A stretch of 64,000 nucleotides of DNA from Mayamaea pseudoterrestris. Its lineage: Eukaryota. This document shows, piece by piece, positions 1 to 54,663 of this stretch. The notes under the pieces are model-generated. The model saw only the letters and a list, made by a program, of their open reading frames with translations. It was not told where the DNA came from and searched no databases. Where the stretch lies: positions 558,001 to 622,000 of the forward strand of contig BROI01000013.1 in the NCBI GenBank assembly GCA_027923505.1, in the 5' to 3' direction. Position 1 is the first letter of the stretch, and the number at the start of each line of letters is the position of its first letter. The position numbers were made by a program, and so were the translations under genes.

Positions 1-2
1 CA

Positions 3-5885: not shown

Positions 5886-8800
5886 AACACCACAAATTGT
5901 CAATTCTTCCCTGTCAAACGCCCCATGCCCTGGCCACCCAAATACCCAATGAGTCAGGCCAAACATGTCCAGGGTATGCCATTGACTGGTGCAGAGTCTC
6001 AAATGGTGCAAAAAGGACTGCCTGGAGGCTGACACCATGGGTACGGCCTCCACGGTGGGTATGGCCAACACCACAAGTTGTCAATTCTTCCCTGTCAAAC
6101 GCCCCATGCCCTGGCCACCCAAATACCCAATGAGTCAGGCAAAACATGTCCAGGGTATGCCATTGACAGGTGCAGAGTCTCAAATGGTGCAAAAAGGACT
6201 GCCTGGAGGCTGACACCATGGGTACGGCCTCCACGGTGGGTATGGCCAACACCACAAGTTGCAGATTCTTACCTGTCAAACGCCCCATGCCCTGGCCACC
6301 CAAATACCCAATGAGTCAGGCAAAACATGTCCAGGGGATGCCATTGACAGGTGCAGAGTCTCAAATGGTGCAAAAAGGACTGCCTGGAGGCTGAAACCAT
6401 GGGTACGGCCTCCACGGTGGGTATGGCCAACACCACAAGTTGTAGATTCTGCCCTGTCAAACGCCCCATGCCCTGGCCACCCAAATACCCAATGAGTCAG
6501 GCAAAACATGTCCAGGGTATTCCATTGACAGGTGCATAGTCTCAAATGGTGCAAAAAGGACTGCCTGGAGGCTGACACCATGGGTACGGCCTCCACGGTG
6601 GGTATGCCAACACCACAAGTTGTCGATTCTTACCTGTCAAACGCCCCATGCCCTGGCCACCCAAATACCCAATGAGTCAGGCCAAACATGTCCAGGGTAG
6701 GCCATTGACAGGTGCATAGTCTCAAATGGTGCAAAAAGGACTGCCTGGAGGCTGACACCATGGGTACGGCCTCCACTGTGGGTATGGCCAACACCACAAG
6801 TTGCCGATTCTGACCTGTCAAACGCCCCATGCCCTGGCCACCCAAATACCCAATGAGTCAGGCAAAACATGTCCAGGGTATGCCATTGACAGGTGCAGAG
6901 TCTCAAATGGTGCAAAAAGGACTGCCTGGAGGCTGACAACATGGGTACGGCCTCCACTGTGGGTATGGCCAACACCACAAGTTGTCGATTCTTCCCTGTC
7001 AAACGCCCCATGCCCTGGCCACCCAAATACCCAATGAGTCAGGCAAAACATGTCCAGGGTAGGCCATTGACAGGTGCAGAGTCTCAAATGGTGCAAAAAG
7101 GACTGCCTGGAGGCTGACACCATGGGTACGGCCTCCACGGTGGGTATGGCCAACACCACAAGTTGTCGATTCTGACCTGTCAAACGCCCCATGCCCTGGC
7201 CACCCAAATACCCAATGAGTCAGGCAAAACATGTCCAGGGTATGCCATTGACAGGTGCAGAGTCTCAAATGGTGCAAAAAGGACTGCCTGGAGGCTGAGA
7301 ACATGGGTACGGCCTTAAGTATGGCCAACACCACAAGTTGCAGATTCTTCCCTGTCAAACGCCCCATGCCCTGGCCACCCAAATACCCAATGAGTCAGGC
7401 CAAACATGTCCAGGGTATGCCATTGACAGGTGCAGAGTCTCAAATGGTGCAAAAAAGGACTGCCTGGAGGCTGACACCATGGGTACGGCCTCCACTGTGG
7501 GTATGGCCAACACCACAAGTTGCAGATTCTGACCTGTCAAACGCCCCATGCCCTGGCCACCCAAATACCCAATGAGTCAGGCAAAACATGTCCAGGGTAT
7601 GCCATTGACAGGTGCAGAGTCTCAAATGGTGCAAAAAGGACTGCCTGGAGGCTGACACCATGGGTACGACCTCCACTGTGGGTATGGCCAACACCACAAG
7701 TTGCAGATTCTTCCCTGTCAAGCGCCCCATGCCCTGGCCACCCAAATACCCAATGAGTCAGGCAAAACATGTCCAGGGGATGCCATTGACAGGTGCAGAG
7801 TCTCAAATGGTGCAAAAAGGACTGCCTGGAGGCTGAAAACATGGGTACGGCCTCCACTGTGGGTATGGCCAACACCACAAGTTGCAGATTCTTCCCTGTC
7901 AAACGCCCCATGCCCTGGCCACCCAAATACCCAATGAGTCAGGCAAAACATGTCCAGGGTATGCCATTGACAGGTGCATAGTCTCAAATGGTGCAAAAAG
8001 GACTGCCTGGAGGCTGAAACCATGGGTACGGCCTCCACTGTGGGTATGCCAACACCACAAGTTGCAGAATCTTCCCTGTCAAACGCCCCACGCCCTGGCC
8101 ACCCAAATACCCAATGAGTCAGGCAAAACATGTCCAGGGTATGCCATTGACAGGTGCATAGTCTCAAATGGTGCAAAAGGACTGCCTGGAGGCTGAAAAC
8201 ATGGGTACGGCCTCCACTGTGGGTATGGCCAACACCACAAGTTGCAGATTCTTCCCTGTCAAACGCCCCATGCCCTGGCCACCCAAATACCCAATGAGTC
8301 AGGCAAAACATGTCCAGGGATGCCATTGACAGGTGCATAGTCTCAAATGGTGCAAAAAGGACTGCCTGGAGGCTGACACCATGGGTACGGCCTCCACTGT
8401 GGGTATGGCCAACACCACAAGTTGCAGATTCTTCCCTGTCAAACGCCCCATGCCCTGGCCACCCAAATACCCAATGAGTCAGGCAAAACATGTCCAGGGT
8501 ATGCCATTGACAGGTGCATAGTCTCAAATGGTGCAAAAAGGACTGCCTGGAGGCTGACACCATGGGTACGGCCTCCACTGTGGGTATGCCAACACCACAA
8601 GTTGCAGATTCTTCCCTGTCAAACGCCCCATGCCCTGGCCACCCAAATACCCAATGAGTCAGGCAAAACATGTCCAGGGTATGCCATTGACAGGTGCATA
8701 GTCTCAAATGGTGCAAAAAGGACTGCCTGGAGGCTGACAACATGGGTACGGCCTCCACTGTGGGTATGGCCAACACCACAAGTTGCAGATTCTTCCCTGT

Positions 8801-11800
8801 CAAACGCCCCATGCCCTGGCCACCCAAATACCCAATGAGTCAGGCAAAACATGTCCAGGGTATGCCATTGACAGGTGCATAGTCTCAAATGGTGCAAAAA
8901 GGACTGCCTGGAGGCTGACAACATGGGTACGGCCTTCACTGTGGGTATGGCCAACACCACAAGTTGCAGATTTTTCCCTGTCAAACGCCCCATGCCCTGG
9001 CCACCCAAATACCCAATGAGTCAGGCAAAACATGTCCAGGGTATGCCATTGACAGGTGCAGAGTCTCAAATGGTGCAAAAAGGACTGCCTGGAGGCCGAA
9101 AACATGGGTACGGCCTTCACTGTGGGTATGGCCAACACCACAAGTTGCAGATTCTTCCCTGTCAAACGCCCCATGCCCTGGCCACCCAAATACCCAATGA
9201 GTCAGGCAAAACATGTCCAGGGTATGCCATTGACAGGTGCATAGTCTCAAATGGTGCAAAAAGGACTGCCTGGAGGCTGAAAACATGGGTACGGCCTCCA
9301 CTGTGGGTATGGCCAACACCACAAGTTGCAGATTCTTCCCTGTCAAACGCCCCATGCCCTGGCCACCCAAATACCCAATGAGTCAGGCAAAACATGTCCA
9401 GGGTATGCCATTGACAGGTGCATAGTCTCAAATGGTGCAAAAGGACTGCCTGGAGGCTGACACCATGGGTACGGCCTCCACTGTGGGTATGGCCAACACC
9501 ACAAGTTGCAGATTCTTCCCTGTCAAACGCCCCATGCCCTGGCCACCCAAATACCCAATGAGTCAGGCAAAACATGTCCAGGGGATGCCATTGACAGGTG
9601 CATAGTCTCAAATGGTGCAAAAGGACTGCCTGGAGGCTGAAAACATGGGTACGGCCTCCACTGTGGGTATGGCCAACACCACAAGTTGCAGATTCTTCCC
9701 TGTCAAACGCCCCATGCCCTGGCCACCCAAATACCCAATGAGTCAGGCAAAACATGTCCAGGGTATGCCATTGACAGGTGCAGAGTCTCAAATGGTGCAA
9801 AAGGACTGCCTGGAGGCTGACAACATGGGTACGGCCTCCACTGTGGGTACGGCCTCCACTGTGGGTATGCCAACACCACAAGTTGCAGAATCTTCCCTGT
9901 CAAACGCCCCACGCCCTGGCCACCCAAATACCCAATGAGTCAGGCAAAACATGTCCAGGGTATGCCATTGACAGGTGCATAGTCTCAAATGGTGCAAAAG
10001 GACTGCCTGGAGGCTGAAAACATGGGTACGGCCTCCACTGTGGGTATGGCCAACACCACAAGTTGCAGATTCTTCCCTGTCAAACGCCCCATGCCCTGGC
10101 CACCCAAATACCCAATGAGTCAGGCAAAACATGTCCAGGGATGCCATTGACAGGTGCATAGTCTCAAATGGTGCAAAAAGGACTGCCTGGAGGCTGACAC
10201 CATGGGTACGGCCTCCACTGTGGGTATGGCCAACACCACAAGTTGCAGATTCTTCCCTGTCAAACGCCCCATGCCCTGGCCACCCAAATACCCAATGAGT
10301 CAGGCAAAACATGTCCAGGGTATGCCATTGACAGGTGCATAGTCTCAAATGGTGCAAAAAGGACTGCCTGGAGGCTGACACCATGGGTACGGCCTCCACT
10401 GTGGGTATGCCAACACCACAAGTTGCAGATTCTTCCCTGTCAAACGCCCCATGCCCTGGCCACCCAAATACCCAATGAGTCAGGCAAAACATGTCCAGGG
10501 TATGCCATTGACAGGTGCATAGTCTCAAATGGTGCAAAAAGGACTGCCTGGAGGCTGACAACATGGGTACGGCCTCCACTGTGGGTATGGCCAACACCAC
10601 AAGTTGCAGATTCTTCCCTGTCAAACGCCCCATGCCCTGGCCACCCAAATACCCAATGAGTCAGGCAAAACATGTCCAGGGTATGCCATTGACAGGTGCA
10701 TAGTCTCAAATGGTGCAAAAAGGACTGCCTGGAGGCTGACAACATGGGTACGGCCTTCACTGTGGGTATGGCCAACACCACAAGTTGCAGATTTTTCCCT
10801 GTCAAACGCCCCATGCCCTGGCCACCCAAATACCCAATGAGTCAGGCAAAACATGTCCAGGGTATGCCATTGACAGGTGCAGAGTCTCAAATGGTGCAAA
10901 AAGGACTGCCTGGAGGCCGAAAACATGGGTACGGCCTTCACTGTGGGTATGGCCAACACCACAAGTTGCAGATTCTTCCCTGTCAAACGCCCCATGCCCT
11001 GGCCACCCAAATACCCAATGAGTCAGGCAAAACATGTCCAGGGTATGCCATTGACAGGTGCATAGTCTCAAATGGTGCAAAAAGGACTGCCTGGAGGCTG
11101 AAAACATGGGTACGGCCTCCACTGTGGGTATGGCCAACACCACAAGTTGCAGATTCTTCCCTGTCAAACGCCCCATGCCCTGGCCACCCAAATACCCAAT
11201 GAGTCAGGCAAAACATGTCCAGGGTATGCCATTGACAGGTGCATAGTCTCAAATGGTGCAAAAGGACTGCCTGGAGGCTGACACCATGGGTACGGCCTCC
11301 ACTGTGGGTATGGCCAACACCACAAGTTGCAGATTCTTCCCTGTCAAACGCCCCATGCCCTGGCCACCCAAATACCCAATGAGTCAGGCAAAACATGTCC
11401 AGGGGATGCCATTGACAGGTGCATAGTCTCAAATGGTGCAAAAGGACTGCCTGGAGGCTGAAAACATGGGTACGGCCTCCACTGTGGGTATGGCCAACAC
11501 CACAAGTTGCAGATTCTTCCCTGTCAAACGCCCCATGCCCTGGCCACCCAAATACCCAATGAGTCAGGCAAAACATGTCCAGGGTATGCCATTGACAGGT
11601 GCAGAGTCTCAAATGGTGCAAAAGGACTGCCTGGAGGCTGACAACATGGGTACGGCCTCCACTGTGGGTATAGCCAACACCACAAGTTGCAGATTCTTCC
11701 CTGTCAAACGCCCCATGCCCTGGCCACCCAAATACCCAATGAGTCAGGCAAAACATGTCCAGGGGATGCCATTGACAGGTGCAGAGTCTCAAATGGTGCA

Positions 11801-14800
11801 AAAGGACTGCCTGAGGCTGACAACATGGGTACGGCCTCCACTGTGGGTATGGCCAACACCACAAGTTGCAGATTCTTCCCTGTCAAACGCCCCATGCCCT
11901 GGCCACCCAAATACCCAATGAGTCAGGCAAAACATGTCCAGGGGATGCCATTGACAGGTGCAGAGTCTCAAATGGTGCAAAAAGGACTGCCTGGAGGCTG
12001 ACAACATGGGTACGGCCTCCACTGTGGGTATGGCCAACACCACAAGTTGCAGATTCTTCCCTGTCAAACGCCCCATGCCCTGGCCACCCAAATACCCAAT
12101 GAGTCAGGCAAAACATGTCCAGGGTATGCCATTGACAGGTGCATAGTCTCAAATGGTGCAAAAAGGACTGCCTGGAGGCTGAACACATGGGTACGGCCTC
12201 CACTGTGGGTATGGCCAACACCACAAGTTGCAGATTCTTCCCTGTCAAACGCCCCATGCCCTGGCCACCCAGATACCCAATGAGTCAGGCAAAACATGTC
12301 CAGGGTATGCCATTGACAGGTGCATAGTCTCAAATGGTGCAAAAGGACTGCCTGGAGGCTGACAACATGGGTACGGCCTCCACTGTGGGTATGGCCAACA
12401 CCACAAGTTGCAGATTCTTCCCTGTCAAACGCCCCATGCCCTGGCCACCCAAATACCCAATGAGTCAGGCAAAAACATGTCCAGGGGATGCCATTGACAG
12501 GTGCATAGTCTCAAATGGTGCAAAAGGACTGCCTGGAGGCTGAACAACATGGGTACGGCCTCCACTGTGGGTATGGCCAACACCACAAGTTGCAGATTCT
12601 TCCCTGTCAAACGCCCCATGCCCTGGCCACCCAAATACCCAATGAGTCAGGCAAAACATGTCCAGGGTATGCCATTGACAGGTGCATAGTCTCAAATGGT
12701 GCAAAAGGACTGCCTGGAGGCTGACAACATGGGTACGGCCTCCACTGTGGGTATGGCCAACACCACAAGTTGCAGATTCTTCCCTGTCAAACGCCCCATG
12801 CCCTGGCCACCCAAATACCCAATGAGTCAGGCAAAACATGTCCAGGGTATGCCATTGACAGGTGCATAGTCTCAAATGGTGCAAAAGGACTGCCTGGAGG
12901 CTGACAACATGGGTACGGCCTCCACTGTGGGTATGGCCAACACCACAAGTTGCAGATTCTTCCCTGTCAAACGCCCCATGCCCTGGCCACCCAAATACCC
13001 AATGAGTCAGGCCAAACATGTCCAGGCGATGCCATTGACAGGTGCAGAGTCTCAAATGAGTGAAAAAGGACTGCCTGAGGCGAAAACCAGTGGGTATGGC
13101 CAACACCACAAGTTGCAGATTCTTCCCTGTCAAACGCCATCGGACCACCCAATACCCAATGAGTCAGGCAAAACATGTCCAGGGTTTGCCATTGACAGGT
13201 GCAGAGTCTCAAATGGTGCAAAAAGGACTGCCTGGAGGCTGACACCCGACGGTCCACTGTGGGTATGGCAACACCACAAGTTGCAGATTCTTCCCTGTCA
13301 AACGCCCCATGCCCTGGCCACCCAAATACCCAATGAGTCAGGCAAAACATGTCCAGGGGATGCCATTGACAGGTGCAGAGTCTCAAATGGTGATACCCAA
13401 TGAGTCAGGCAAAACATGTCCAGGGTATGCCATTGACAGGTGCATAGTCTCAAATGGTGCAAAAGGACTGCCTGGAGGCTGACAACATGGGTACGGCCTC
13501 CACTGTGGGTATGGCCAACACCACAAGTTGCAGATTCTTCCCTGTCAAACGCCCCATGCCCTGGCCACCCAAATACCCAATGAGTCAGGCAAAAACATGT
13601 CCAGGGGATGCCATTGACAGGTGCATAGTCTCAAATGGTGCAAAAGGACTGCCTGGAGGCTTAACAACATGGGTACGGCCTCCACTGTGGGTATGGCCAA
13701 CACCACAAGTTGCAGATTCTTCCCTGTCAAACGCCCCATGCCCTGGCCACCCAAATACCCAATGAGTCAGGCAAAACATGTCCAGGGTATGCCATTGACA
13801 GGTGCATAGTCTCAAATGGTGCAAAAGGACTGCCTGGAGGCTGACAACATGGGTACGGCCTCCACTGTGGGTATGGCCAACACCACAAGTTGCAGATTCT
13901 TCCCTGTCAAACGCCCCATGCCCTGGCCACCCAAATACCCAATGAGTCAGGCAAAACATGTCCAGGGTATGCCATTGACAGGTGCATAGTCTCAAATGGT
14001 GCAAAAGGACTGCCTGGAGGCTGACAACATGGGTACGGCCTCCACTGTGGGTATGGCCAACACCACAAGTTGCAGATTCTTCCCTGTCAAACGCCCCATG
14101 CCCTGGCCACCCAAATACCCAATGAGTCAGGCCAAACATGTCCAGGCGATGCCATTGACAGGTGCAGAGTCTCAAATGGGTGAAAAAGGACTGCCTGAGG
14201 CGAAAACCAGTGGGTATGGCCAACACCACAAGTTGCAGATTCTTCCCTGTCAAACGCCATCGGACCACCCAATACCCAATGAGTCAGGCAAAACATGTCC
14301 AGGGTTTGCCATTGACAGGTGCAGAGTCTCAAATGGTGCAAAAAGGACTGCCTGGAGGCTGACACCCGACGGTCCACTGTGGGTATGGCAACACCACAAG
14401 TTGCAGATTCTTCCCTGTCAAACGCCCCATGCCCTGGCCACCCAAATACCCAATGAGTCAGGCAAAACATGTCCAGGGGATGCCATTGACAGGTGCAGAG
14501 TCTCAAATGGTGGTGTTGGCCAACACCACAAGTTGCAGATTCTTCCCTGTCAAACGCCCCATGCCCTGGCCACCCAAATACCCAATGAGTCAGGCAAAAC
14601 ATGTCCAGGGTAGGCCATTGACAGGTGCAGAGCCTCAAATGGGAAAAAAAGGACTGCCTGGAGGCTGACAACTGGGTACGCCTCCACTGTGGGTATACCA
14701 ACAAGTTGCAGATTCTTCCCTGTCAACATGCCCTGGCCACCCAAATACCCAATGAGTCAGGCAAAACATGTCCAGGTGATGCCATTGACAGGTGCAGAGT

Positions 14801-17800
14801 CTCAAAGGTGAAAGATGGAGGCTGACAACATGGGAGCCTCCAGTGGGTATGGCCAACACCACAAGTTGCAGATTCTTCCCGTCAAACGCCCCATGCGGCC
14901 ACCCAAATACCCAATGAGTCAGGCAAAACATGTCCAGGGTATGCCATTGACAGGTGCATAGTCTCAAATGGTCAAAAAGGATGCCTGAGGCTGACAACTT
15001 AGCTCCACTGTGGGTATGGCCAACACCACAAGTTGCAGATTCTCCTGTCAAACGCCCCATGCCTGGCCACCCAAATACCCAATGAGTCAGGCAAAACATG
15101 TCCAGGGTATGCTATTGGCAGGTGCATAGTCCAAATGGTGCAAAAGGAGCCTGAGGCTGAACCATGGGTACGGCCCACTGTGGGTATGCCAACACACTGC
15201 AGATTCTTCCCAAACCCCATGCCCTGGCCACCCAAATACCCAATGAGTCAGGCAAAACATGTCCAGGGTAGGCCAGACAGGTGCATAGTCTCAAATGGTG
15301 AAAGGACCGTCTAGAGGTGACAACATGGGTACCTAGTGGGATGGCAAACACAAGTTGCAGATTCTTCCCTGTCAAACGCCCCATGCCCTGGCCACCCAAA
15401 TACCCAATGAGTCAAGCAAAACATGTCCAGGGATACCATGACAGGTGCAGAGTCTCAAATGGTGCAAAGCTGTGCTGGAGGCCGACAACATGACGGCTCC
15501 ACTGGGGTATGGCCAACACCACAAGTTGCAGATTCTTCCTGTCAAACGCCCCATGCCCGGCCACCCAAATACCCAATGAGTCAGGCAAAACAGTCCAGGG
15601 TGCCACACAGGTGCAGAGTCTCAAATGGCGCAAAAGGACTGTGAGGCTGGAAAAACTCCACTGGGTAGGCCACACCACAAGTTGAGATTCTTCTGTCAAA
15701 CGCATGCCTGGCCACCCAAATACCCAACGAGTCAGGCAAAACATGTCCAGGGTATGCCATTGACAGGTGCATAGTCTCAAATGGTGCAAAAGGACTGCTG
15801 AGGACACAGGGTCCCTCCATGGGTATGGCAACACCACAAGTTGCAGATTCTTCCCTGTCAAACGCCCCATGCCCTGGCCACCCAAAACCCAATGAGTCAG
15901 GCAAAACATGTCCAGGGGAGGTGAGGTGCATAGTCTCAAATGGTGAGGGAGGTGAACCGGGTACGCTCCATGGGTATGGCCAACACCACAATTGAGATCT
16001 CCTGTCAAAGCATGCTGGCACCCAACCAATGAGTCAGTAAAACATGTCCAGGGTATGCATTGAGTCTCATGGTGCAAAAGGAAAGACACAAGTTGTCGAC
16101 GGACTGTCAAACGCCGCCCTGCCACCCAAATACCTGATGAGTCATGTCCAGGGTATGCCATTGACAGGTGCAGAGTCTCAAATGGTGCAAAGGAGGAGGT
16201 GACACAGATCCCCACACCGCAGCCGTTGGCCAAACCACAAGTTTTTCAAAATGCTGGCCACCCAAATGCAAACATGTCCAGGGTATGCATTGACAGGTGC
16301 AGAGTCTCAACGGTGCAAAAAGGACTGTGGAGGCTGACACCATGGGTACGGCCCCACCGTGGGTGTAAGGGCCAAACACAAGCTGTCAAACCATGCCTGG
16401 CCACCCAAATACCAATGATCAGGCCAAACATGTCCAGGGTATGCCATTGACAGGTGCAGAGTCTCAAATGGTGCAAAAGGACTGCCTGAGGCACACCATG
16501 GGGTAGCCCAGTGGGTATGGCCAACACCACAAGTTGACGATTTTCTGTCAAAGCCCCATGCCTGGCCACCAAATACCCAATGAGTCAGGCCAAACATGTC
16601 CAGGGTATGCCATGACAGCAGCGTCTCAAATGGTTGGCAAAAGGATGGGAACGGGTGGTCCATGGGTATGGCCAACACCACAAGTTGCCGATTCTTCCTG
16701 TCAAACGCCCCATGCCCTGGCCACCCAAATACCCAATGAGTCAGGCAAAACACCCAGGGTATGCCATTGACAGGTGCAGAGTCTCAAATGGTGCAAAAAG
16801 GACCGCCTGGAGGTTGACACCATGGGTACGGCCCCACTGTGGGTTGGCCAAACAAGTTGTCGATTCCCCTGTCAAACCCCCTGCGGCCACAAATACCATG
16901 AGTAAAACATGTCCAGGGTATGCCAATGACAGGTGTAGTCCGGTGCAAAAGGACTGTGGAGGCTGACACCAGGCGGGAACACAAGTTGCGATTCCTGTCA
17001 AACCATGCCCTGGCCACCCAAATACCAATGAGTCAGGCCAAACATGTCCAGGGAGGATACAGCATAGTCTCATGGTGCAAAAGGACTGCCTGGAGGCTGA
17101 ACATACGCCCACTGTGGGTATGGGCCAACACCCGCAAGTGTCGATTATGTCAAGCATGTGGCCACCCAAATACCCAATGAGTCAGGCAAAACATGTCCAG
17201 GGATGCCATTGACAGGTGCAGAGTCTCAAATGGTGCAAAGGACTGCCGAGGCTGAACAGGGGCCTCCATGGGTATGGCCAACACCACAAGTTGTCGACTG
17301 CTGTCAAACCCCATGCCTGGCCACCCAAAAACCCAATGAGTCAGGCAAAATGTCCAGGGGAGGATTGAAGGTGCATAGTCTCAATGGTGCAAAAGGACTG
17401 CTGGAGGTGACACCATGGAGCCCCACGGTGGGTATGGCCAACACCACAAGTTGTCGATTCCCCGTCAAACGCCCCATGCCCTGGCCACAAATACCCAATG
17501 AGTCAGGCCACAAATGTCCAGGGTATGCCATTGACAGGTGCAAGTCTCAAATGGTGCAAAAGGACTGCCTGGAGGCTGACAATCCATGTTATGGCAACAC
17601 ACAAGTTGTCATCCTGTCAAACGCCCCATGCCCTGGCCACCCAAATACAATGAGTCGGGCAAAACATGTCCAGGGTAGGCCATTGACAGGTGCAAGTCTC
17701 AAATGGTGCAAAAGGAGCTGAGGCTGACACAGGGTACGGCCTCCAGTGGGTTGAAACACAAGTTGCCGAATTTCCTGTCAAAGCCATGCTGGCCACCAAA

Positions 17801-18945
17801 ACCAATGAGTCAGGCAAAACATGTCCAGGGATGCCATTGACAGGTGCAGAGTCTCTGTGCAAAAAGGACTGCTGAGGCTGACAACATGGGTACGGTCTCC
17901 ACTGTGGGTTGGCCAACACCACAGGTTGCAGATTCTCCTGTCAAATGCCCCTGGCCACCAAAACCCAATGAGTCAGAAAAATCAGGGTGTGAGTGATACT
18001 CAAATGTGCAAAAAGGACTGTGAGGCTGACAACATGGGTACGGCCCCACTGTGGGTATGGCCAACACCACAAGTTGGATTCCCTGTCAAACGCCCCATGC
18101 CCTGGCCACCCAAATACCCAATGAGTCAGGCAAACATGTTCAGGGTAGGCCATTGACAGGTGACAGAGTCTCAAATGGAGCGGAGAGGTAACCACGGTCC
18201 CACTGACCAAGTGTGTCAAACGCCCCATGCCCTGCACCCAAAATGAGTCAAACATCCAGGAGGTGCATTGCAAAAGGACTGCCTAGAGGCTGACACCATG
18301 GGTACGGCCTCCACGGTGGGTATGGCCAACACCACAAGTTGTCGATTCCACAAACGCCCATGCCCACACAAATACCAATGAGTCAGGCCAAACATGTCCA
18401 GGGGATGCCATTGACAGGTGCATAGTCTCAAATGGTGTAAAAGGACTGCCTGGGAGTACGACAACATGGGTATGGCTCCACGGTGGTTGTGGCCAACATT
18501 TCACAAGTTGTCGATTCTTCCGTCAAACATCAAACAAAATACCCAATGAATCAGACAATCCAGGGGATACCATTAAAGGAGAGTCTCAAAAGCAAAAAGG
18601 ACTGCCTGAGGCTGACACCATGGGTACCGTCATTGGGTGTGGTTGGCAACACAAGTTTTCAAACGCCCATGCCTGGCCACCCAAATACCGATGAGTCAGG
18701 CAAAAACATCCAGGGCTGACGGGGTGCTCGGGCAAGGGTAAGTTGCAATCCCTCATGCCCAAATACCCAATGAGTCAGGCCAAACATGTCCAGGGGATGC
18801 CATTGACAGGTGCATAGTCTGGTGAAAAGGACTGCCTGGAGGCTGAGCCACCAGGTACGGACTCCACGGTATGGCCAATGACCACAAGTTGTCGATTCTG
18901 ACTCAAACGCCCATGCCTGCCGCCCACAATACCCGATGAGTGATT
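5886..18945 (+). repeat. 181-bp tandem satellite (family A), left arm, roughly 72-75 copies
   Basis: Head-to-tail unit ...CCCTGTCAAACGCCCCATGCCCTGGCCACCCAAATACCCAATGAGTCAGG... with period 180-181. Increasingly indel-ridden from about 13000 onward. Confidence 0.97.
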
Positions 18946-42900: not shown

Positions 42901-45900
42901 TGGTGTTGGCCATACCCACCGTGGAGGCCGTACCCATGGTGTCAGCCTCCAGGCAGTCCTTTTTGCACCATTTGAGACTCTGCACCTGTCAATGGCAACC
43001 CTGGACATGTTTGGCCTGACTCATTGGGTATTTGGGTGGCCAGGGCATGGGGCGTTTGACAGGTCAGAATCGACAACTTGTGGTGTTGGCCATACCCACC
43101 GTGGAGGCCGTACCCATGGTGTCAGCCTCCAGGCAGTCCTTTTTGCACCATTTGAGACTCTGCACCTGTCAATGGCATACCCTGGACATGTTTGGCCTGA
43201 CTCATTGGGTATTTGGGTGGCCAGGGCATGGGGCGTTTGACAGGTCAGAATCGACAACTTGTGGTGTTGGCCATACCCACCGTGGAGGCCGTACCCATGG
43301 TGTCAGCCTCCAGGCAGTCCTTTTGCACCATTTGAGACTCTGCACCTGTCAATGGCATACCCTGGACATGTTTGGCCTGACTCATTGGGTATTTGGGTGG
43401 CCAGGGCAGGGGCGTTTGACAGGGCAGAATCGACAACTTGTGGTGTTGGCCATACCCACCGTGGAGGCCGTACCCATGGTGTCAGCCTCCAGGCAGTCCT
43501 TTTTGCACCATTTGAGACTCTGCACCTGTCAATGGCATACCCTGGACATGTTTGGCCTGACTCATTGGGTATTTGGGTGGCCAGGGCATGGGGCGACAAC
43601 TTGTGGTGTTGGCCATACCCACCGTGGAGGCCGTACCCATGGTGTCAGCCTCCAGGCAGTCCTTTTTGCACCATTTGAGACTCTGCACCTGTCAATGGCA
43701 TACCCCTGACATGTTTGGCCTGACTCATTGGGTATTTGGGTGGCCAGGGCAGGGCGTTGACAGGGCAAATACGCAACTCTGGTGTTGGCAACAAGGAGCC
43801 GTACCCATGGTGTCAGCCTCCAGGCAGTCCTTTTTGCACCATTTGAGACTCTGCACCTGTCAATGGCATACCCTGGACATGTTTGGCCTGACTCATTGGG
43901 TATTTGGGTGGCCAGGGCATGGGGCGTTTGACAGGTCAGAATCGACAACTTGTGGTGTTGGCCATACCCACCGTGGAGGCCGTACCCATGGTGTCAGCCT
44001 CCAGGCAGTCCTTTTGCACCATTTGAGACTCTGCACCTGTCAATGGCATACCCTGGACATGTTTGGCCTGACTCATTGGGTATTTGGGTGGCCAGGGCAT
44101 GGGGCGTTTGACAGGTCAGAATCGACAACTTGTGGTGTTGGCCATACCCACCGTGGAGGCCGTACCCATGGTGTCAGCCTCCAGGCAGTCCTTTTGCACC
44201 ATTTGAGACTCTGCACCTGTCAATGGCATACCCTGGACATGTTTGGCCTGACTCATTGGGTATTTGGGTGGCCAGGGCATGGGGCGTTTGACAGGTCAGA
44301 ATCGACAACTTGTGGTGTTGGCCATACCCACCGTGGAGGCCGTACCCATGGTGTCAGCCTCCAGGCAGTCCTTTTTGCACCATTTGAGACTCTGCACCTG
44401 TCAATGGCATACCCTGGACATGTTTGGCCTGACTCATCGGGTATTTGGGTGGCCAGGGCATGGGGCGTTTGACAGGTCAGAATCGACAACTTGTGGTGTT
44501 GGCCATACCCACCGTGGAGGCCGTGTGTGTCAGCCTCCAGGCAGTCCTTTTTGCACCATTTGAGACTCTGCACCTGATGTTTGGCCTGACTCATTGGGTA
44601 TTTGGGTGGCCAGGGCATGGGGCGTTTGACAGGTCAGAATCGACAACTTGTGGTGTTGGCCATACCCACCGTGGAGGCCATGTGTGTCAGCCTCCAGGCA
44701 GTCCTTTTTGCACCATTTGAGACTCTGCACCTGTCAATGGCATACCCTGGACATGTTTGGCCTGACTCATTGGGTATTTGGGTGGCCAGGGCATGGGGCG
44801 TTTGACAGGTCAGAATCGACAACTTGTGGTGTTGGCCATACCCACCGTGGAGGCCGCACCCATGGTGTCAGCCTCCAGGCAGTCCTTTTTGCACCATTTG
44901 AGACTCTGCACCTGTCAATGGCATATGACTCATTGGGTATTTGGGTGGCCGGGGCATGGGGCGTTTGAGGGCAGAATCACAACTTGTGGTGTTGGCCAAC
45001 CGTGGAGGCCGTACCCATGGTGTCAGCCTCCAGGCAGTCCATTTTGCACCATTTGAGACTCTGCACCTGTCAATGGCATACCCTGGACATGTTTGGCCTG
45101 ACTCATTGGGTATTTGGGTGGCCAGGGCATGGGGCGTTTGACAGGTCAGAATCGACAACTTGTGGTGTTGGCCATACCCACCGTGGAGGCCGTACCCATG
45201 GTGTCAGCCTCCAGGCAGTCCTTTTTGCACCATTTGTGCGATACCCAGGACATGTTTGGCCTGACTCATTGGGTATTTGGGTGGCCAGGGCATGGGGCGT
45301 TTGACAGGTCAGAATCGACAACTTGTGGTGTTGGCCATACCCACCGTGGAGGCCGTACCCATGGTGTCAGCCTCCAGGCAGTCCTTTTTGCACCATTTGA
45401 GACTCTGCACCTGTCAATGGCATACCCTGGACATGTTTGCCTGACTCATTGGGTATTTGGGTGGCCAGGGCATGGGGCGTTTGACAGGTCAGAATCGACA
45501 ACTTGTGGTGTTGGCCATACCCACCGTGGAGGCCGTACCCATGGTGTCAGCCTCCAGGCAGTCCTTTTTGCACCATTTGAGACTCTGCACCTGTCAATGG
45601 CATACCCTGGACATGTTTGGCCTGACTCATTGGGTATTTGGGTGGCCAGGGCATGGGGCGTTTGACAGGTCAGAATCGACAACTTGTGGTGTTGGCCATA
45701 CCCACCGTGGAGGCCGCACCCATGGTGTCAGCCTCCAGGCAGTCCTTTTTGCACCATTTGAGACTCTGCACCTGTCAATGGCATACCCCTGACATGTTTG
45801 GCCTGACTCATTGGGTATTTGGGTGGCCAGGCATGGGGGGCTTGACAGGGCAGAATCGACAACTTGTGGTGTTGGAAGTGGAGCGTACCTGGTGTCAGCC

Positions 45901-48355
45901 TCCAGGCAGTCCTTTTGCACATTTGAGACTCTGCACCTGTCAATGGCAACCCTGGACATGTTTGGCCGGTGGGGTGGGGCGCTTGACAGGCAGAACGACA
46001 ACTGTGGTGTTGGCCAACCCAGACCGGTGTCAGCCTCCGGCAGTCCTTTTTGCACCATTTGAGACTCTGCACTGTCAATGGCATACCCTGGACATGTTTG
46101 GCCTGATCATTGGGTATGGGGGCCAGGGCAGGCGCGCGGTTTTTGCAATTTGAGACTCTGACTGTCAATGGTACCCACATGTTTGGCCTGACTCATTGGG
46201 TATTTGGGTGGCCAGGGCATGGGGCAGCCTCCAGGCAGTCCTTTTTGCACCATTTGAGACTCTGCACCTGTCAATGGCATACCCTGGACATGTTTGGCCT
46301 GACTCATTGGGTATTTGGGTGGCCAGGGCATGGGGCGTTTGACAGGTCAGAATCGACAACTTGTGGTGTTGGCCATACCCACCGTGGAGGCCGTACCCAT
46401 GGTGTCAGCCTCCAGGCAGTCCTTTTGCACCATTTGCGACACTGCACCTGTCAATGGCATACCCTGGACATGTTTTGCCTGACTCATTGGGTATTTGGGT
46501 GGCCAGGGCATGGGGCGTTTGACAGGTCAGAATCTACAACTTGTAATGTTGGCCATACCCACAGGGGAGGCCGTACCCATGGTGTCAGCCTCCAGGCAGT
46601 TCTGTTTGCACCATTTGAGACTCTGCACCTGTCAATGGCATAACCGGGACATGTTTTGCCTGACTCATTGGGTATTTGGGTGGCCAGGGCATGGGGCGTT
46701 TGACAGGTCAGAATCTACAACTTGTGGTGTTGGCCATACCCACAGTGGAGGCCGTACCCATGGTGTCAGCCTCCAGGCAGTCCTTTTTGCACCATTTGAG
46801 ACTCTGCACCTGTCAATGGCATACCCTGGACATGTTTTGCCTGACTCATTGGGTATTTGGGTGGCCAGGGCATGGGGCGTTTGACAGGTCAGAATCGACA
46901 ACTTGTAGTGTTGGCCATACCCACAGGGGAGGCCGTACCCATGGTGTCAGCCTCCAGGCAGTTCTGTTTGCACCATTTGAGACTCTGCACCTGTCAATGG
47001 CATACCCTGGACATGTTTTGCCTGACTCATTGGGTATTTGGGTGGCCAGGGCATGGGGCGTTTGACAGGTCAGAATCGACAACTTGTGGTGTTGGCCATA
47101 CCCACAGTGGAGGCCGTACCCATGGTGTCAGCCTCCAGGCAGTCCTTTTAGCACCATTTGAGACTCTGCACCTGACAATGGCATACCCTGGACATGTTTT
47201 GCCTGACTCATTGGGTTGTTGGGTGGCCAGGGCATGGGGCGTCTGACAGGTCAGAATCTACAACTTGTAATGTTGGCCATACCCACAGGGGAGGCCGTAC
47301 CCATGGTGTCAGCCTCCAGGCAGTCCTTTTTGCACCATTTGAGACTCTGCACCTGTCAATGACACACCCTGGACATGTTTTGCCTGACGCATTGGGTATT
47401 TGGGTGGCCAGGGCATGGGGCATTTGACAGGTCAGAATCTACAACTTGTGGTGTTGGCCATACCCACAGTGGAGGCCGTACCCATGGTGCCAGCCTCCAG
47501 GCAGTCCTTTTTGCACCATTTGAGACTCTGCACCTGTCAATGGCATACCCTGGACATGTTTTGCCTGACTCATTGGGTATTTGGGTGGCCAGGGCATGGG
47601 GCGTTTGACAGGGAAGAATCTGCAACTTGTGGTGTTGGCCATACCCACAGTGGAGGCCGTACCCATGGTGTCAGCCTCCAGGCAGTCCTTTTAGCACCAT
47701 TTGAGACTCTGCACCTGACAATGGCATACCCTGGACATGTTTTGCTTGACTCATTGGGTTGTTGGGTGGCCAGGGCATGGGGCGTCTGACAGGTCAGAAT
47801 CTACAACTTGTAATGTTGGCCATACCCACAGGGGAGGCCGTACCCATGGTGTCAGCCTCCAGGCAGTCCTTTTTGCACCATTTGAGACTCTGCACCTGTC
47901 AATGACACACCCTGGACATGATTTGCCTGACTCATTGGGTATTTGGGTGGCCAGGGCATGGGGCGTTTGACAGGTCAGAATCTACAACTTGTGATGCTGG
48001 CCATACCCACAGTGGAGGTGGGCCGTACACATGGTGTCAGCCTCCAGGCAGTCCTTTTTGCATCATTTGAGACTCTGCACCTGTCAATGGCATTCCCTGG
48101 ACATGTTTTGCTTGACTCATTGTGTATTAGGGTGGCCAGGGCATGTTGCGTTTGACAGGTCAGAATCTACAACTTGTGGTGTTGGCCATACCCACAGTGG
48201 AGGCCATACCCATGGTGTCAGCCTCCAGGCATTCCTTTTGCACCATTTGAGACTCTGCACCTATCAATGGCATACCCTGGGGAATGTTTTGCCTGACTCA
48301 TTGGGTATTTGGGTAGCCAGGGCATTGGGCATTTTACAGGTCAATGACAACTTGT
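18946..48355 (-). repeat. 181-bp tandem satellite (family A), right arm in the opposite orientation, roughly 162 copies
   Basis: Reverse complement of the left-arm unit. Near-identical copies from about 19700 to 39000 differ almost only in T4/T5 and C3/C4 homopolymer length. The monomer has 100 G+C in 181 bases (55%). Confidence 0.97.
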
Positions 48356-51300
48356 TTCAGGGGATGGAAAGGTATTTGGTGACAACTTGTCACCAGTCTC
48401 AGCCCGCAGATGCCGTGACATTCAAATGCCCCTACAGCAAGCCCTGTAGGTGCCCAAATTTACACCAGAATGGTGCCAACATCATTAATCAGGCTGCGCT
48501 ACAAGATGGTAGGCTTGGCTGGTGTCTCACGGGATGGCAATGGATTTGGTGACAACTTGTCACCAGTCTCAGCCCACAGATGCCGTGACATTCAAATGCC
48601 CCTACAGCAAGCCCTGTAGGTGCCCAAAATACTCCAGAATGGTGCCAACATTTTATTCAGGCTGCGCCACAAGAAGGTAGTCTTGGCTGGTGTCTCAGGG
48701 GATGGCAATGTGTTTGGTGACAACTTGTCACCAGTCAGCCCGCTGATGCCGCGACATTCAAATGCCCCTACAGCAAGCCCTGTAGGTGCCCAAAATACAC
48801 CAGAATGGTGTCAACATCATTATTCAGGCTGCGCTACAAGATGGTAGGCTTGGATGGTGTCTCAGGGGATGGCAATGTGTTTGGTGACAACTTGTCACCA
48901 GTCAGCCCGCAGATGCCGTGACATTCAAATGCCCCTACAGCAAGCCCTGTAGGTGCCCAAAATACACCAGAATGGTGCCAACATCATTATTCAGGCTGCG
49001 CTACAAGATGGTAGGCTTGGATGGTGTCTCAGGGGATGGCAATGTATTTGGTGACAACTTGTCACCAGTCAGCCCGCTGATGCCGCGACATTCAAATGCC
49101 CCTACAGCAAGCCCTGTAGGTGCCCAAAATACACCAGAATGGTGCCAACATCATTATTCAGGCTGCGCTACAAGATGGTAGGCTTGGATGGTGTCTCAGG
49201 GGATGGCAATGTATTTGGTGACAACTTGTCACCAGTCTCAGCCCGCAGATGCCGTGACATTCAAATGCCCCTACAGCAAGCCCTGTAGGTGCCCAAAATA
49301 CACCAGAATGGTGCCAACATCATTATTCAGGCTGCGCTACAAGATGGTAGGCTTGGATGGTGTCTCAGGGGATGGCAATGTATTTGGTGACAACTTGTCA
49401 CCAGTCTCAGCCCACAGATGCTGTGACATTCAAATGCCCCTACAGCAAGCCCTGTAGGTGCCCAAAATACACCAGAATGGTGCCAACATCATTATTCAGG
49501 CTGCGCTACAAGATGGTAGGCTTGGATGGTGTCTCAGGGGATGGCAATGTATTTGGTGACAACTTGTCACCAGTCTCAGCCCGCAGATGCCGTGACATTC
49601 AAATGCCCCTACAGCAAGCCCTGTAGGTGCCCAAAATACACCAGAATGGTGCCAACATCATTATTCAGGCTGCGCTACAAGATGGTAGTCTTGGCTGGTG
49701 TCTCAGGGGATGGCAATGTATTTGGTGACAACTTGTCACCAGTCTCAGCCCGCAGATGCCGTGACATTCAAATGCCCCTACAGCAAGCCCTGTAGGTGCC
49801 CAAAATACACCAGAATGGTGCCAACATCATTATTCAGGCTGCGCTACAAGATGGTAGGCTTGGATGGTGTCTCAGGGGATGGCAATGTATTTGGTGACAA
49901 CTTGTCACCAGTCTCAGCTTGCAGATGCTGTGACATTCAAATGCCCCTACAGCAAGCCCTGTAGGTGCCCAAAATACACCAGAATGGTGCCAACATCATT
50001 ATTCAGGCTGCGCTACAAGATGGTAGGCTTGGCTGGTGTCTCAGGGGATGGCAATGTATTTGGTGACAACTTGTCACCAGTCTCAGCCCGCAGATGCCGT
50101 GACATTCAAATGCCCCTACAGCAAGCCCTGTAGGTGCCCAAAATACACCAGAATGGTGCCAACATCATTATTCAGGCTGCGCTACAAGATGGTAGTCTTG
50201 GCTGGTGTCTCAGGGGATGGCAATGTATTTGGTGACAACTTGTCACCAGTCTCAGCCCGCAGATGCCGTGACATTCAAATGCCCCTACAGCAAGCCCTGT
50301 AGGTGCCCAAAATACACCAGAATGGTGCCAACATCATTATTCAGGCTGCGCTACAAGATGGTAGGCTTGGATGGTGTCTCAGGGGATGGCAATGTATTTG
50401 GTGACAACTTGTCACCAGTCAGCCCGCAGATGCCGCGACATTCAAATGCCCCTACAGCAAGCCCTGTAGGTGCCCAAAATACACCAGAATGGTGCCAACA
50501 TCATTCTTTAAGCTGAGCTACAAGATGGTAGTCTTGGCTGGCGACTCAGGGGATGGCAATGTATTTGGTGACAACTTGTCACCAGTCTCAGCTTGCAGAT
50601 GCTGTGACATTCAAATGCCCCTACAGCAAGCCCTGTAGGTGCCCAAAATACACCAGAATGGTGCCAACATCATTATTCAGGCTGCGCTACAAGATGGTAG
50701 GCTTGGATGGTGTCTCAGGGGATGGCAATGTATTTGGTGACAACTTGTCACCAGTCTCAGCCCGCAGATGCCGTGACATTCAAATGCCCCTACAGCAAGC
50801 CCTGTAGGTGCCCAAAATACTCCAGAATGGTGCCAACATCCTTTTTCAGGCTGCGCTACAAGATGGTAGGCTTGGCTGGTGTCTCAGGGGATGGCAATGT
50901 ATTTGGTGACAACTTGTCACCAGTCTCAGCCCGCAGATGCCGTGACATTCAAACACCCCTACAGCAAGCCCTGTAGGTGCCCAAAATACACCAGAATGGT
51001 GCCAACATCATTATTCAGGCTGCGCTACAAGATGGTAGGCTTGGCTGGTGTCTCAGGGGATGGCAATGTATTTGGTGACAACTTGTCACCAGTCTCAGCC
51101 CACAGATGCCGTGACATTCAAATGCCCCTACAGCAAGCCCTGTAGGTGCCCAAAATACACCAATCAAAATGGTGCCAACATCTATTCAGGCTGCGCTTCA
51201 AGATGGTAGTTTTGGCTGGTGACTCAGGGGATGGCAATGTATTTGATGACAACTTGTCACCAGTCTCAGCCCGCAGATGCCGTGACATTCAAATGCCCCT

Positions 51301-53647
51301 ACAGCAAGCCCTGTAGGTGCCCAAAATACACCAGAATGGTGCCAACATCATTATTCAGGCTGCGCTACAAGATGGTAGGCTTGGATGGTGTCTCAGGGGA
51401 TGGCAATGTATTTGGTGACAACTTGTCACCAGTCTCAGCCCGCAGATGCCGCGACATTCAAATGCCCCTACAGCAAGCCCTGTAGGTGCCCAAAATACAC
51501 CAGAATGGTGCCAACATCATTATTCAGGCTGCGCTACAAGATGGTAGGCTTGGCTGGTGTCTCAGGGGATGGCAATGTATTTGGTGACAACTTGTCACCA
51601 GTTCAAGCCCTGTAGGTGCCCACTCACGCTACAACGGATGCTGTGACAATTCAAATGCCCCTACAGCAAGCCCTGTAGGTGCCCAAAATACACCAGAATG
51701 GTGCCAACATCATGCTCAGTCCCAGCAGCAGGCTGATGATGGTGTGCTCAGAATGGTGCACATCAGTATTCAGGTGTGTGACAACTTGTCACCAGTCTCA
51801 GCCCGCAGATGCCGTGACATTTAAATGCCCCTACAGCAAGCCCTGTAGGTGCCCAAAATACTCCAGAATGGTGCCAACATCCTTTTTCAGGCTGCGCTAC
51901 AAGATGGTAGGCTTGGCTGGTGACTCAGGGGATGGCAATGTATTTGGTGACAACTTGTCACCAGTCTCAGCCCGCAGATGCCGTGACATTCAAACACACC
52001 TACAGCAAGCCCTGTAGGTGCCCAAAATACACCAGAATGGTGTCAACATCATTATTCAGGCTGCGCTACAAGATGGTAGGCTTGGATGGTGTCTCAGGGG
52101 ATGGCAATGTATTTGGTGACAACTTGTCACCAGTCTCAGCCCGCAGATGCCGTGACATTCAAATGCCCCTACAGCAAGCCCTGTAGGTGCCCAAAATACA
52201 CCAGATTGGTGTCAACATCATTATTCAGGCTGCGCTACAAGATGGTAGGCTTGGATGGTGTCTCAGGGGATGGCAATGTGTTTGGTGACAACTTGTCACC
52301 AGTCTCAGCCCGCAGATGCCGTGACATTCAAATGCCCCTACAGCAAGCCCTGTAGGTGCCCAAATTACACCAGATTTGTGTCAACATCATTATTCAGGCT
52401 GCGCTACAAGATGGTAGGCTTGGCTGGTGTCTCAGGGGATGGCAATGTATTTGATGACAACTTGTCACCAGTCTCAGCCCGCAGATGCCGTGACATTCAA
52501 ATGCCCCTACAGCAAGCCCTGTAGGTGCCCAAAATACTCCAGAATGGTGCCAACATCCTTTTTCAGGCTGCGCTACAAGATGGTAGGCTTGGATGGTGAC
52601 TCAGGGGATGGCAATGTATTTGGTGACAACTTGTCACCAGTCTCAGCCCGAAGATGCCGTGACATTCAAATGCCCCTACAGCAAGCACCATAGGTGCCCA
52701 AAATACACCAGATTGGTGTCAACATCATTATTCAGGCTGCGCTACAAGATGGTAGGCTTGGCTGGTGACTCAGGGGATGGCAATGTATTTGGTGACAACT
52801 AGTCTCAGCCCGCAGATGCCGTGACATTCAAACACACCTACAGCAAGCCCTGTAGGTGCCCAAAATACACCAGAATGGTGTCAACATCATTATTCAGGCT
52901 GCGCTACAAGATGGTAGGCTTGGATGGTGTCTCAGGGGATGGCAATGTGTTTGGTGACAACTTGTCACCAGTCAGCCCGCAGATGCCGCGACATTCAAAT
53001 GCCCCTACAGCAAGCCCTGTAGGTGCCCAAAATACACCAGAATGGTGCCAACATCATTCTTTAAGCTGAGCTACAAGATGGTAGTCTTGGCTGGCGACTC
53101 AGGGGATGGCAATGTATTTGGTGACAACTTGTCACCAGTCTCAGCTTGCAGATGCTGTGACATTCAAATGCCCCTACAGCAAGCCCTGTAGGTGCCCAAA
53201 ATACACCAGAATGGTGCCAACATCATTATTCAGGCTGCGCTACAAGATGGTAGGCTTGGATGGTGTCTCAGGGGATGGCAATGTATTTGGTGACAACTTG
53301 TCACCAGTCTCAGCCCGCAGATGCCGTGACATTCAAATGCCCCTACAGCAAGCCCTGTAGGTGCCCAAAATACTCCAGAATGGTGCCAACATCCTTTTTC
53401 AGGCTGCGCTACAAGATGGTAGGCTTGGCTGGTGACTCAGGGGATGGCAATGTATTTGGTGACAACTTTCTCCAGTCTCAGCCCGCAGATGCCGTGACAT
53501 TCAAATGCCCCTACAGCAAGCACCGTAGGTGCCCAAAATACACCAGATTGGTGTCAACATCATTATTCAGGCTGCGCTACAAGATGGTAGGCTTGGATGG
53601 TGTCTCAGGGGATGGCAATGTATTTGGTGACAACTTGTCACCAGTCT
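48356..53647 (+). repeat. 169-bp tandem satellite (family B), about 31 copies
   Basis: Unit GGTGACAACTTGTCACCAGTCTCAGCCCGCAGATGCCGTGACATTCAAATGCCCCTACAGCAAGCCCTGTAGG... with period 169 (167 in some copies). Confidence 0.97.
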
Positions 53648-54663
53648 TATAATTTAGGGTGTTGGCCACCTCCATCCTGCAGACCATTCCGTGGTGTAGG
53701 CCTCCAGGCAGTCCGTTTTGCACCATGCCAGACCATCCTCATGTCAATGGCACACTCTGGCCATGTTTTGCTTGACTCATTGGGTTGTTGGGTGACCAGG
53801 GCACAGGGAATTGTAGTGGTATGATTCCATAATTTGGGTTGTTGGCCACAACTAGCCTGCAGACCATTCCGTGGTGTAGGCCTCCATGCAGTCGTTTTGC
53901 ACCATGTCAGACCATCCTCATGTCAATGGCACACCCTGGACATGTTTTGCATGACTCATTGGGTTGTTGGGTGATCAGGGCACGGGGCATTGTAGTGGTA
54001 TGATTCCATAATTTGGGGTGTTGGCCACACCCAGCACGCAGACCATGCCATGGTGTAGGCCTCCCGGCAGTCCAAATTTCACCATTTCAGACCATCCTCA
54101 TGTCAATGGCACACCCTGGACGTGTTTTGTCTGACTCATTGGGTTGTTGGGTGGCCAGGGCACGGGGCATTGTAGTGGTATGATTCCATAATTTGGGGTG
54201 TTGGCCACACCCAGCACGCAGACCATGCCATGGTGTAGGCCTCCCGGCAGTCCAAATTTCACCATTTCAGACCATCCTCATGTCAATGGCACACCCTGGA
54301 CATGTTTTGCATGACTCATTAGGTTGTTGGGTGGCCAGGGCACGGGGCATTGTAGTGGTATGATTCCATAATTTGGGGTGTTGGCCAAACCCAGCCTGCA
54401 GACCATTCCAGGGTGTAGGCCTCCAAGCAGTCCGTTTTGCACCATTTCAGTTCATCCTCATGTCAATGGCACACCCTGGACATGTTTTGCCTGACTCATA
54501 GGGTTGTTGGGGGGCCAGGGCATCGGGCATTGTAATGGTATGATTCCATAATTTGGGGTGTTGGCCACCCCCAGCCTGCAGAACATTCCATGGTGTAGGT
54601 CTCCAGGCAGTCCATTTTGCACCATTTCAGACCATCCTAATGTTAATGGCACACCCTGGACAT
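53648..54663 (-). repeat. Diverged 180-bp variant of satellite family A, about 5.6 copies
   Basis: Period is 179-180. It shares GTGTTGGCCA, GCCTCCAGGCAGTCC, GCACCATTT, TGTCAATGGCA, CCCTGGACATGTTTTG, TGACTCATTGGG and GGTGGCCAGGGCA in the same order as the right arm. Confidence 0.92.

Follow-up and report, generated by a model that had tools for sequence, protein, structure and literature searches.

What kind of chromatin does a long block of tandem repeats form on a diatom chromosome, and could such a block be a centromere? We have addressed this question at a locus of Mayamaea pseudoterrestris, in a window of 64,000 nucleotides (64 kb) that corresponds to positions 558,001 to 622,000 of the forward strand of contig BROI01000013.1 (GenBank assembly GCA_027923505.1). 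The window is the whole stretch of DNA that was analyzed, and all coordinates given here are counted from its first letter. A tandem-repeat block (5,854-54,663, ~49 kb) lies in it, composed of three satellites with units of 181, 169 and 180 bp, for which an initial annotation had proposed either a satellite-type centromere or a heterochromatic block. We consider that the block is probably methylated satellite heterochromatin, of unproven function and possibly pericentric, a reading to which we would assign a probability of about 0.6. Of the initial proposal it is therefore the heterochromatic half that we retain, since the DNA is tandem, apparently non-coding and CpG-depleted, has a young core with older variants on either side and adjoins a retroelement. 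A 49-kb GC-rich block carrying the scar of methylation would represent classical satellite heterochromatin in at least one diatom.

Satellite arrays and CpG depletion

Tandem Repeats Finder (TRF), run on the 64-kb window with scores that reached 47,953, detected a first array of period 181 at 5,854-13,392 (41.9 copies, 96% matches), followed by degenerate rows that continued to 18,178. A second and larger array of the same period was found at 19,007-40,853 (120.8 copies, 97% matches), and after it came a row of period 180 at 41,396-45,967 (26.2 copies, 83% matches) and another of period 181 at 46,218-48,343 (11.7 copies). The block ends with an array of period 169 at 48,353-53,647 (31.3 copies, 92% matches) and a short one of period 180 at 53,649-54,663 (5.6 copies, 91% matches). 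Altogether there are ~245 units of 181 bp, 31 of 169 bp and 5.6 of 180 bp. A profile made from 123 core monomers of the 181-bp unit and run over the window gave 252 matches (173 on the plus strand and 79 on the minus strand), 212 of which spanned at least 170 of the 181 positions; one weak plus match (14,405-14,528, score 18), on the wrong strand, was later removed from the profile set. Monomer word patterns were seen 132, 177 and 27 times, versus 0 in 100 shuffles. Both the position of the block and the figure of ~270 monomers of 181, 169 and 180 bp in the initial annotation are borne out by these data. The 181-bp part has a GC content of 0.53-0.555, the 169-bp part one of 0.51 and the flanks one of 0.47-0.52, in agreement with the GC-rich block (55%) described before. 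These are long head-to-tail arrays of constant monomer length, both in TRF and in the profile. The 181-bp family is genuine nuclear satellite DNA in a diatom, within a block that derives from two unrelated monomer families. It appears to be previously undescribed and to behave as classical satellite DNA; in the open-access and preprint literature we found no account of large diatom nuclear satellite arrays, of a 181-bp diatom satellite or of a satellite-type diatom centromere.

The arrays are arranged in ordered blocks that correspond to four subfamilies of the 181-bp unit, which we call L, C, R and D. The left arm (subfamily L, 5,854-14,540), delimited by TRF and the profile, is on the minus strand and continues into a stretch of the same satellite riddled with deletions (14,541-18,968, minus strand). 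At 18,960-19,008 the array switches orientation head to head. All 79 minus-strand matches of the profile are located in 5,857-18,977 and the plus-strand ones in 19,008-48,355, with six more in the 180-bp edge, and both the AT and the GC skew flip sign at the switch. Monomer typing places the homogeneous core (subfamily C, plus strand) at 19,008-39,251, and inside it there is a perfect tandem duplication of 3,478 bp (24,335-31,290, plus strand), in which 24,335-27,812 is identical to 27,813-31,290. Core-type monomers with larger deletions, on average 12 bp per monomer, extend over 39,252-46,219 on the plus strand, and are followed by the outer right monomers (subfamily R, 46,220-48,355, plus strand), which are intermediate between L and the core. 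Beyond R are the 169-bp satellite and, at the very edge, the D block, whose 180-bp unit is an old relative of the 181-bp one; both the satellite and the D block are on the plus strand.

Mean pairwise identity was highest in C (0.984, 107 units) and decreased through L (0.967, 38 units) and R (0.940, 10 units, 46.2-48.4 kb) to D (0.903, 5 units), so that the uniform core and diverged edges of the initial annotation stand. The consensus sequences of C and R differed at 3 positions, those of L and R at 5, and those of L and C at 8, and D differed at ~35. Since L lies outside the core on the left, and R and D on the right, older types bracket a young core. The D consensus is ~81% identical to that of the core, with 87% identity at positions 1-110 and 70% at positions 111-181 (Fisher P = 0.007), a mild hint at the sequence level that positions 1-110 may be under constraint, and nothing beyond that.

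The 169-bp family, placed between the R and D blocks, has a mean pairwise identity of 94% over the array, with no higher-order period at lags 1-11. Neither was a regular multi-monomer higher-order repeat found in the 181-bp array, where there are isolated block copies only. Comparison of the 169-bp and 181-bp units gave nothing past a match of 10 bases (E 0.18). We considered these 10 bases as a sequence box common to both units and rejected it as chance, given the E-value of 0.18 and that it is not kept in D. As a separate observation, each 169-bp unit (48,353-53,647) contains two short palindromes, with stems of 7 and 8 bp in the DNA fold.

The CpG dinucleotide is scarce in all the parts of the block. 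For the two 181-bp arms the observed/expected ratio (o/e) of CpG was 0.21 and 0.29; the 169-bp array gave 0.26 and the 180-bp edge 0.20, while the flanks gave 1.12 on the side of the copia-type retroelement and 1.02 on the side of the genes. The o/e of GpC was 0.8-1.2 throughout. When the consensus sequences were shuffled (20,000 times each), the probability of finding as few CpGs as observed, or fewer, was 0.0001, 0.0004 and 0 of 20,000. As the 169-bp family is unrelated in sequence, these amount to two independent cases of CpG depletion. Besides, there are two positions at which the CpG is kept in the core and lost in L and R, one of them being CpA in both subfamilies and the other CpT. In the long term, cytosine methylation usually leaves a selective loss of CpG behind, and diatoms methylate repeats. 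The depletion with respect to the flanks thus points to long-term cytosine methylation, i.e., to heterochromatin, and we infer from the sequence that the satellite block is methylated, silent chromatin. In other eukaryotes cytosine methylation silences transposable elements, as stated in the available text of PMC9998398.

A block of this kind would grow and be homogenized through unequal exchange together with local block duplication. It would be packaged as cytosine-methylated silent chromatin, in which the methylated CpGs would be converted to TpG/CpA. The block examined here may be one of many such arrays in the genome, or a share of a far larger total. The kinetochore site would most likely be elsewhere, the block being at most a heterochromatic domain, which could be pericentric.

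We found no evidence of coding potential in the satellite array, which would be non-coding judging from its period, from Rfam and from one open reading frame (ORF) without relatives. The period of 181 bp is not divisible by three. Rfam gave no match anywhere in the 64-kb window, leaving an origin from an RNA gene without support, and a comparison of a 189-amino-acid ORF of the array with proteins of 103-331 residues gave no relative at E <= 0.001. On the other hand, as most frames of the 181-bp unit are open, some 120 ORFs of 120-369 amino acids are found within 5,854-48,355; none of them is a gene, but they represent a risk for annotation.

Marks of probable assembly error and presence in other sequencing runs

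Several features of the array resemble errors of long-read assembly. The plus arm (19,008-48,213) comprises 165 start-to-start units, 108 of which fall into four types (62, 27, 11 and 8 units) that are distinguished solely by how long two homopolymers are, one of T (T4/T5) and one of C (C3/C4). Errors in homopolymer length are typical of nanopore-type reads. Between 14.5 and 19.0 kb each monomer carries 7-12 deletion events that amount to 25-38 deleted bases, mostly unshared between neighbors, with hardly any extra substitutions; in the 16-19 kb zone the averages were 5.7 substitutions versus 37.6 deleted bases per monomer. The 169-bp array, by contrast, varies by 4.96 substitutions versus 0.8 indel bases per monomer. 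Since this array diverges by substitution and the 16-19 kb zone by deletion, we attribute the state of the zone to error rather than to age, and the monomer alignment of 14,541-18,968 suggests that this stretch is probably a low-quality long-read consensus. Smaller patches of error-like deletions were found at 19,363-19,698, 39,991-40,345, 43,641-43,808 and 45,724-46,219.

Perfect copies of larger blocks belong to the same group of signs. Apart from the 3,478-bp duplication of the core, the left arm contains a perfect copy of a 1,827-bp block at an offset of 1,821 (8,023-9,849 identical to 9,844-11,670) and a 1.1-kb block copy in which 12,367-13,486 is similar to 13,487-14,540. The junctions of both perfect duplications are out of the monomer register, that of the 3,478-bp one by 39 bp, and around the latter there are anomalous monomers (27,655-27,876) and TRF rows of period 41 and 221. 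The perfect duplications could be very recent events or pasted assembly consensus. We also considered a fold-back read as the source of the whole left arm and rejected it, since the monomers at 5.9-14.5 kb form a subfamily of their own and those at 16-19 kb have mixed marker types, not purely that of the core. Taken together, these marks make the length of the array, the number of copies, the uniformity of the core and the orientation switch provisional, and users of the assembly should be cautious with the layout of this satellite region, which bears the marks of long-read error. Neither the orientation switch, the deletion-riddled stretch, the homopolymer variation and the perfect duplications nor the depletion in CpG had been noted in the initial annotation.

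Contigs of four public sequencing runs (X1, X3, X4 and X5) were placed on positions 16,000-19,400 of the window. X3 and X4 are one sample from a second study that has a different organism label, and X1 may be the source of the window itself. The contigs placed there were 71,816 of 555,133 in X1, 9,870 of 182,933 in X3, 39,631 of 560,787 in X4 and 7 of 63,006 in X5. The 181-bp family is present in the run contigs of both studies in tens of thousands of variant pieces. Over the clean monomers at 19,078-19,400 the summed word depth, which is not a copy number, reached 5-6 million for X1, against ~0.5-0.7 million for X3 and X4. As a matter of arithmetic only, and with no single-copy calibration, ~250 copies would require a depth per copy of ~20,000 in X1 and ~2,000 in X3 and X4. 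These depths suggest that there are many more copies in the genome than in the window. Some of the satellite-bearing contigs run on into loose ends that do not occur in the window, 27 letters long in X1 and 255 letters long in each of two X5 contigs, and X3 contains a D-like variant word that has no exact match in the window; these are weak indications that more arrays or fragments exist elsewhere. Additional letters are present in contigs of three runs at 17,871, 18,045, 18,606-18,608, 18,671 and 18,688, and these letters may stem from other repeat copies. Next to the orientation switch, the bin 18,850-18,963 had depths of 0, 0, 3.3 and 0 in X1, X3, X4 and X5, a gap that proves nothing, and no contig piece across the switch was present among those listed, which are few of ~61,500. 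In exact searches of metagenome contigs neither a 28-letter word from the 181-bp unit nor a 31-letter word from the 169-bp unit was matched, and a 27-letter satellite word had no match in viral contigs or in prokaryote genome contigs.

Centromere, misjoin or silent satellite

A functional centromere would imply CENH3 on the 181-bp core, a pericentric role for the older monomers and the 169-bp satellite, and one array per chromosome. Units 181, 169 and 180 bp long speak in its favor, together with the young uniform core flanked by older variants, the retroelement at one edge and the genes within 2 kb of the other. The abundance of the family in run contigs, where it is joined to sequence from outside the window, is compatible with the existence of many arrays; the window lacks telomere repeats, and the uneven conservation between the core and D could mark a bound segment. 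All the architectural features on this list, however, are common to non-centromeric satellites. A unit of ~180 bp, a homogenized core and a retroelement at the edge are general traits of satellites and not specific to centromeres, and in our case the homogeneity of the core, real as its older flanks are in the assembly, may partly reflect the building of the consensus. Dyad symmetry, which we tried as a hint of centromere function, had to be rejected, the monomers showing no excess of it in DNA folding (181-bp unit, z +0.60; 169-bp unit, z -0.84; not significant).

Composition sets the block apart from the diatom centromeres mapped so far, which are short, low in GC and free of repeats according to the available text of 10.1101/096016. 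We applied to the window the rule derived from Phaeodactylum tricornutum, a cluster of 100-bp windows with <=32% GC within 3 kb. Not one such 100-bp window was found in the 64 kb; the minimum was 34%, at 62,363, outside the array, and the minima of the arrays were 37-46%. Instead of a short repeat-free region there are 49 kb of tandem repeats with a GC content of 53-55%. The centromere reading is disfavored by composition, and we regard it as improbable. That this diatom uses GC-rich ~181-bp arrays as regional centromeres, with one array of ~50 kb per chromosome of ~1 Mb, seems to us no more likely. If it were true, it would be a centromere type undescribed in diatoms, and the architecture would have switched within the group.

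The preference for silent heterochromatin has to be balanced with several considerations that weigh against it. The satellite CEN178 of Arabidopsis is methylated and sits at a real centromere; since methylated satellites occur at real centromeres, methylation does not exclude one here. The CpG signal traces one amplified monomer per family, and the effective sample is two families and not 280 units. The argument of abundance uses summed word depths of contigs with no single-copy reference, and the low-GC scan covers 64 kb of a contig of 922,795 bp. The low-GC rule itself was set in one species and is no more than suggested for two others by GC profile or by a preliminary vector assay, as far as the available texts describe (10.1101/096016, 10.1101/2021.11.10.468027), and M. 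pseudoterrestris could depart from it. Finally, a dominant satellite of ~180 bp is reported as the centromere repeat in most of the plants and animals surveyed (PMC4053949, in the text available).

A different explanation concerns structure, not function, and is compatible with the heterochromatin reading. The satellite would be real, but the head-to-head layout would be a misjoin of arrays, array ends or haplotypes, produced through one or a few long reads that were error-rich and possibly chimeric. In that case the copia-type element and the ferredoxin-NADP reductase (FNR) gene on the other side need not flank the same array. We take this as a serious possibility, a little short of even. The 4.5 kb that precede the switch, with their 7-12 unshared deletions per monomer and few substitutions, as opposed to the substitution-type divergence of the 169-bp array, are what would be expected from it; at several positions there the missing letters are supplied by contigs of three runs, the core varies in homopolymer length only, and the two perfect duplications with out-of-register junctions indicate that the consensus of this region is not fully trustworthy. 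To this can be added that no listed contig piece crosses the switch, but short contigs are unlikely to bridge such a junction and few of the ~61,500 pieces are listed. Inversions are common in natural satellite arrays, and the two arms are different subfamilies rather than mirror images, so a fold-back fails for the left arm as a whole. Some of the same marks, i.e., the perfect duplications (3,478 and 1,821 bp) and the restriction of core variation to homopolymers, would also suit a case in which the assembly had expanded a few copies and no long array existed at all. This is very improbable, since three runs of two studies yield variant contigs by the tens of thousands, with summed word depths that are very large, since four distinct subfamilies lie in ordered blocks, and since the 169-bp and D arrays diverge by substitution. 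Methylated satellite heterochromatin remains, in our opinion, the best description of the block.

Flanking genes and comparison with known systems

To the left of the block there is the coding region of a copia-type retroelement (1-5,721, plus strand), spread over three or more frames (ORFs 3-1,976, 2,294-3,016 and 2,941-5,721), whose 5' part extends beyond the window. Pfam identified Pol_BBD (2.4e-06) and copia-type RVT_2 (8e-43) in ORFs 3-1,976 and 2,941-5,721, and no integrase domain at E <= 0.1. Only ~130 bp separate the stop of pol from the first satellite monomer. The initial annotation had placed a long terminal repeat (LTR) element here; the copia-type ORFs agree with it, but no LTR pair was found within 1-5,900 (a lone LTR was not searched for). 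The element (1-5,853) is not depleted in CpG, with an o/e of 1.12, unlike the adjoining satellites, and may therefore have been inserted more recently or have had another history of chromatin.

On the right side, a spacer of 1.9 kb separates the array from a plastid-type FNR gene (56,572-58,005, plus strand), in agreement with the normal genes announced at ~2 kb from this end. The spacer contains two tandem copies of a 354-bp unit (55,301-56,005, plus strand, 87-94% alike), which is not matched by the 181-bp profile and may be a nascent repeat. The FNR gene consists of a short first exon (from 56,572), whose encoded signal peptide includes the ASAFAP motif, of an intron of ~340 bp, and of the main ORF (56,989-58,005), which matches NAD_binding_1 (E = 4.2e-27). 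The obvious GT/AG sites in 56,572-56,988 leave exon 1 out of frame with the ORF at 56,989. The ASAFAP motif is a diatom signal for plastid import. In the main ORF the identity to FNRs of diatoms is 87-94%, and all the named matches examined were from diatoms; together with the ASAFAP presequence this identifies the host as a diatom, as had been proposed. FNR is too conserved for a finer placement among diatoms, and a protein atlas yielded FNR clusters only. Farther along there is an orphan ORF of 552 amino acids (58,409-60,067, minus strand), which matched no Pfam family and, among proteins of 303-966 residues, nothing but itself, and a partial ORF (63,193-63,999) with a FAD_binding_2 match (1.3e-19) that runs past the right end of the window. 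The protein of 552 amino acids, recorded in NCBI nr, and a neighboring one of 216 amino acids belong to one chromosome-sized contig of 922,795 bp. A search with three canonical hexamer units of telomere repeats, with 1 mismatch allowed, found none in the window, so that this is not an array at a chromosome end within ~6-9 kb. The array is flanked by a retroelement and genes, and not by telomere repeats as a subtelomeric satellite might be.

Satellites of similar size are known from the centromeres of plants and primates, as CEN178/180 of Arabidopsis and the human alpha satellite of 171 bp. The diatom block shares with them the near-nucleosomal unit, the long head-to-tail arrays, the young core among older monomers, the block duplications, the orientation switches and the retroelements at the edge. 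It has no sequence relation to them, its GC content is 55% whereas they are AT-rich, and it has no regular higher-order repeat.

Among diatoms, the centromeres of P. tricornutum reportedly have a length of the order of a few kb. They are described as low-GC (100-bp windows <=32%), short and not composed of repeats, and episome maintenance depended on low-GC inserts, of which those of at least 500 bp worked, as did every tested sequence with <28% GC (10.1101/096016, in its available text). Low-GC regions were also suggested as centromeres in Thalassiosira pseudonana (10.1101/096016, same text), and putative low-GC centromeres of 36-42% GC are reported for Fistulifera solaris in the available part of 10.1101/2021.11.10.468027. 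Like in these three species, the host is a diatom and the block is located on a nuclear chromosome, of ~1 Mb. In contrast with the centromeres of P. tricornutum, it is 49 kb long, has 51-55% GC, is purely repetitive and has no window with <=32% GC. The block supplies a concrete sequence with which to ask whether the low-GC type of centromere holds across diatoms.

Other stramenopiles provide two more points of reference. PpSat1 and PpSat2 of Phytophthora parasitica, whose function is unproven, have been discussed in relation to centromeres and telomeres (PMC7290008, available text). From that description they resemble our case in being nuclear satellites of a stramenopile that form two unrelated families differing in length, conservation and dynamics; they belong to another lineage, the diatom families are adjacent in one block, and the likeness is one of description. 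The centromeres of Phytophthora sojae are long clusters of transposons bound by CENP-A, and the part of the report available describes no satellite arrays in them (PMC7082073). Here too the organism is a stramenopile and retroelements are associated with the region, but in the diatom it is a single copia-type element that abuts a satellite array.

The 180-bp repeat of maize knobs forms large heterochromatic arrays that are not centromeric. With it the diatom block has in common the unit of ~180 bp and the large arrays, and the maize knob is heterochromatic without being the site of the kinetochore. The likeness does not imply the neocentromere or drive behavior of the knobs, and it is drawn for a block that is known from its sequence alone.

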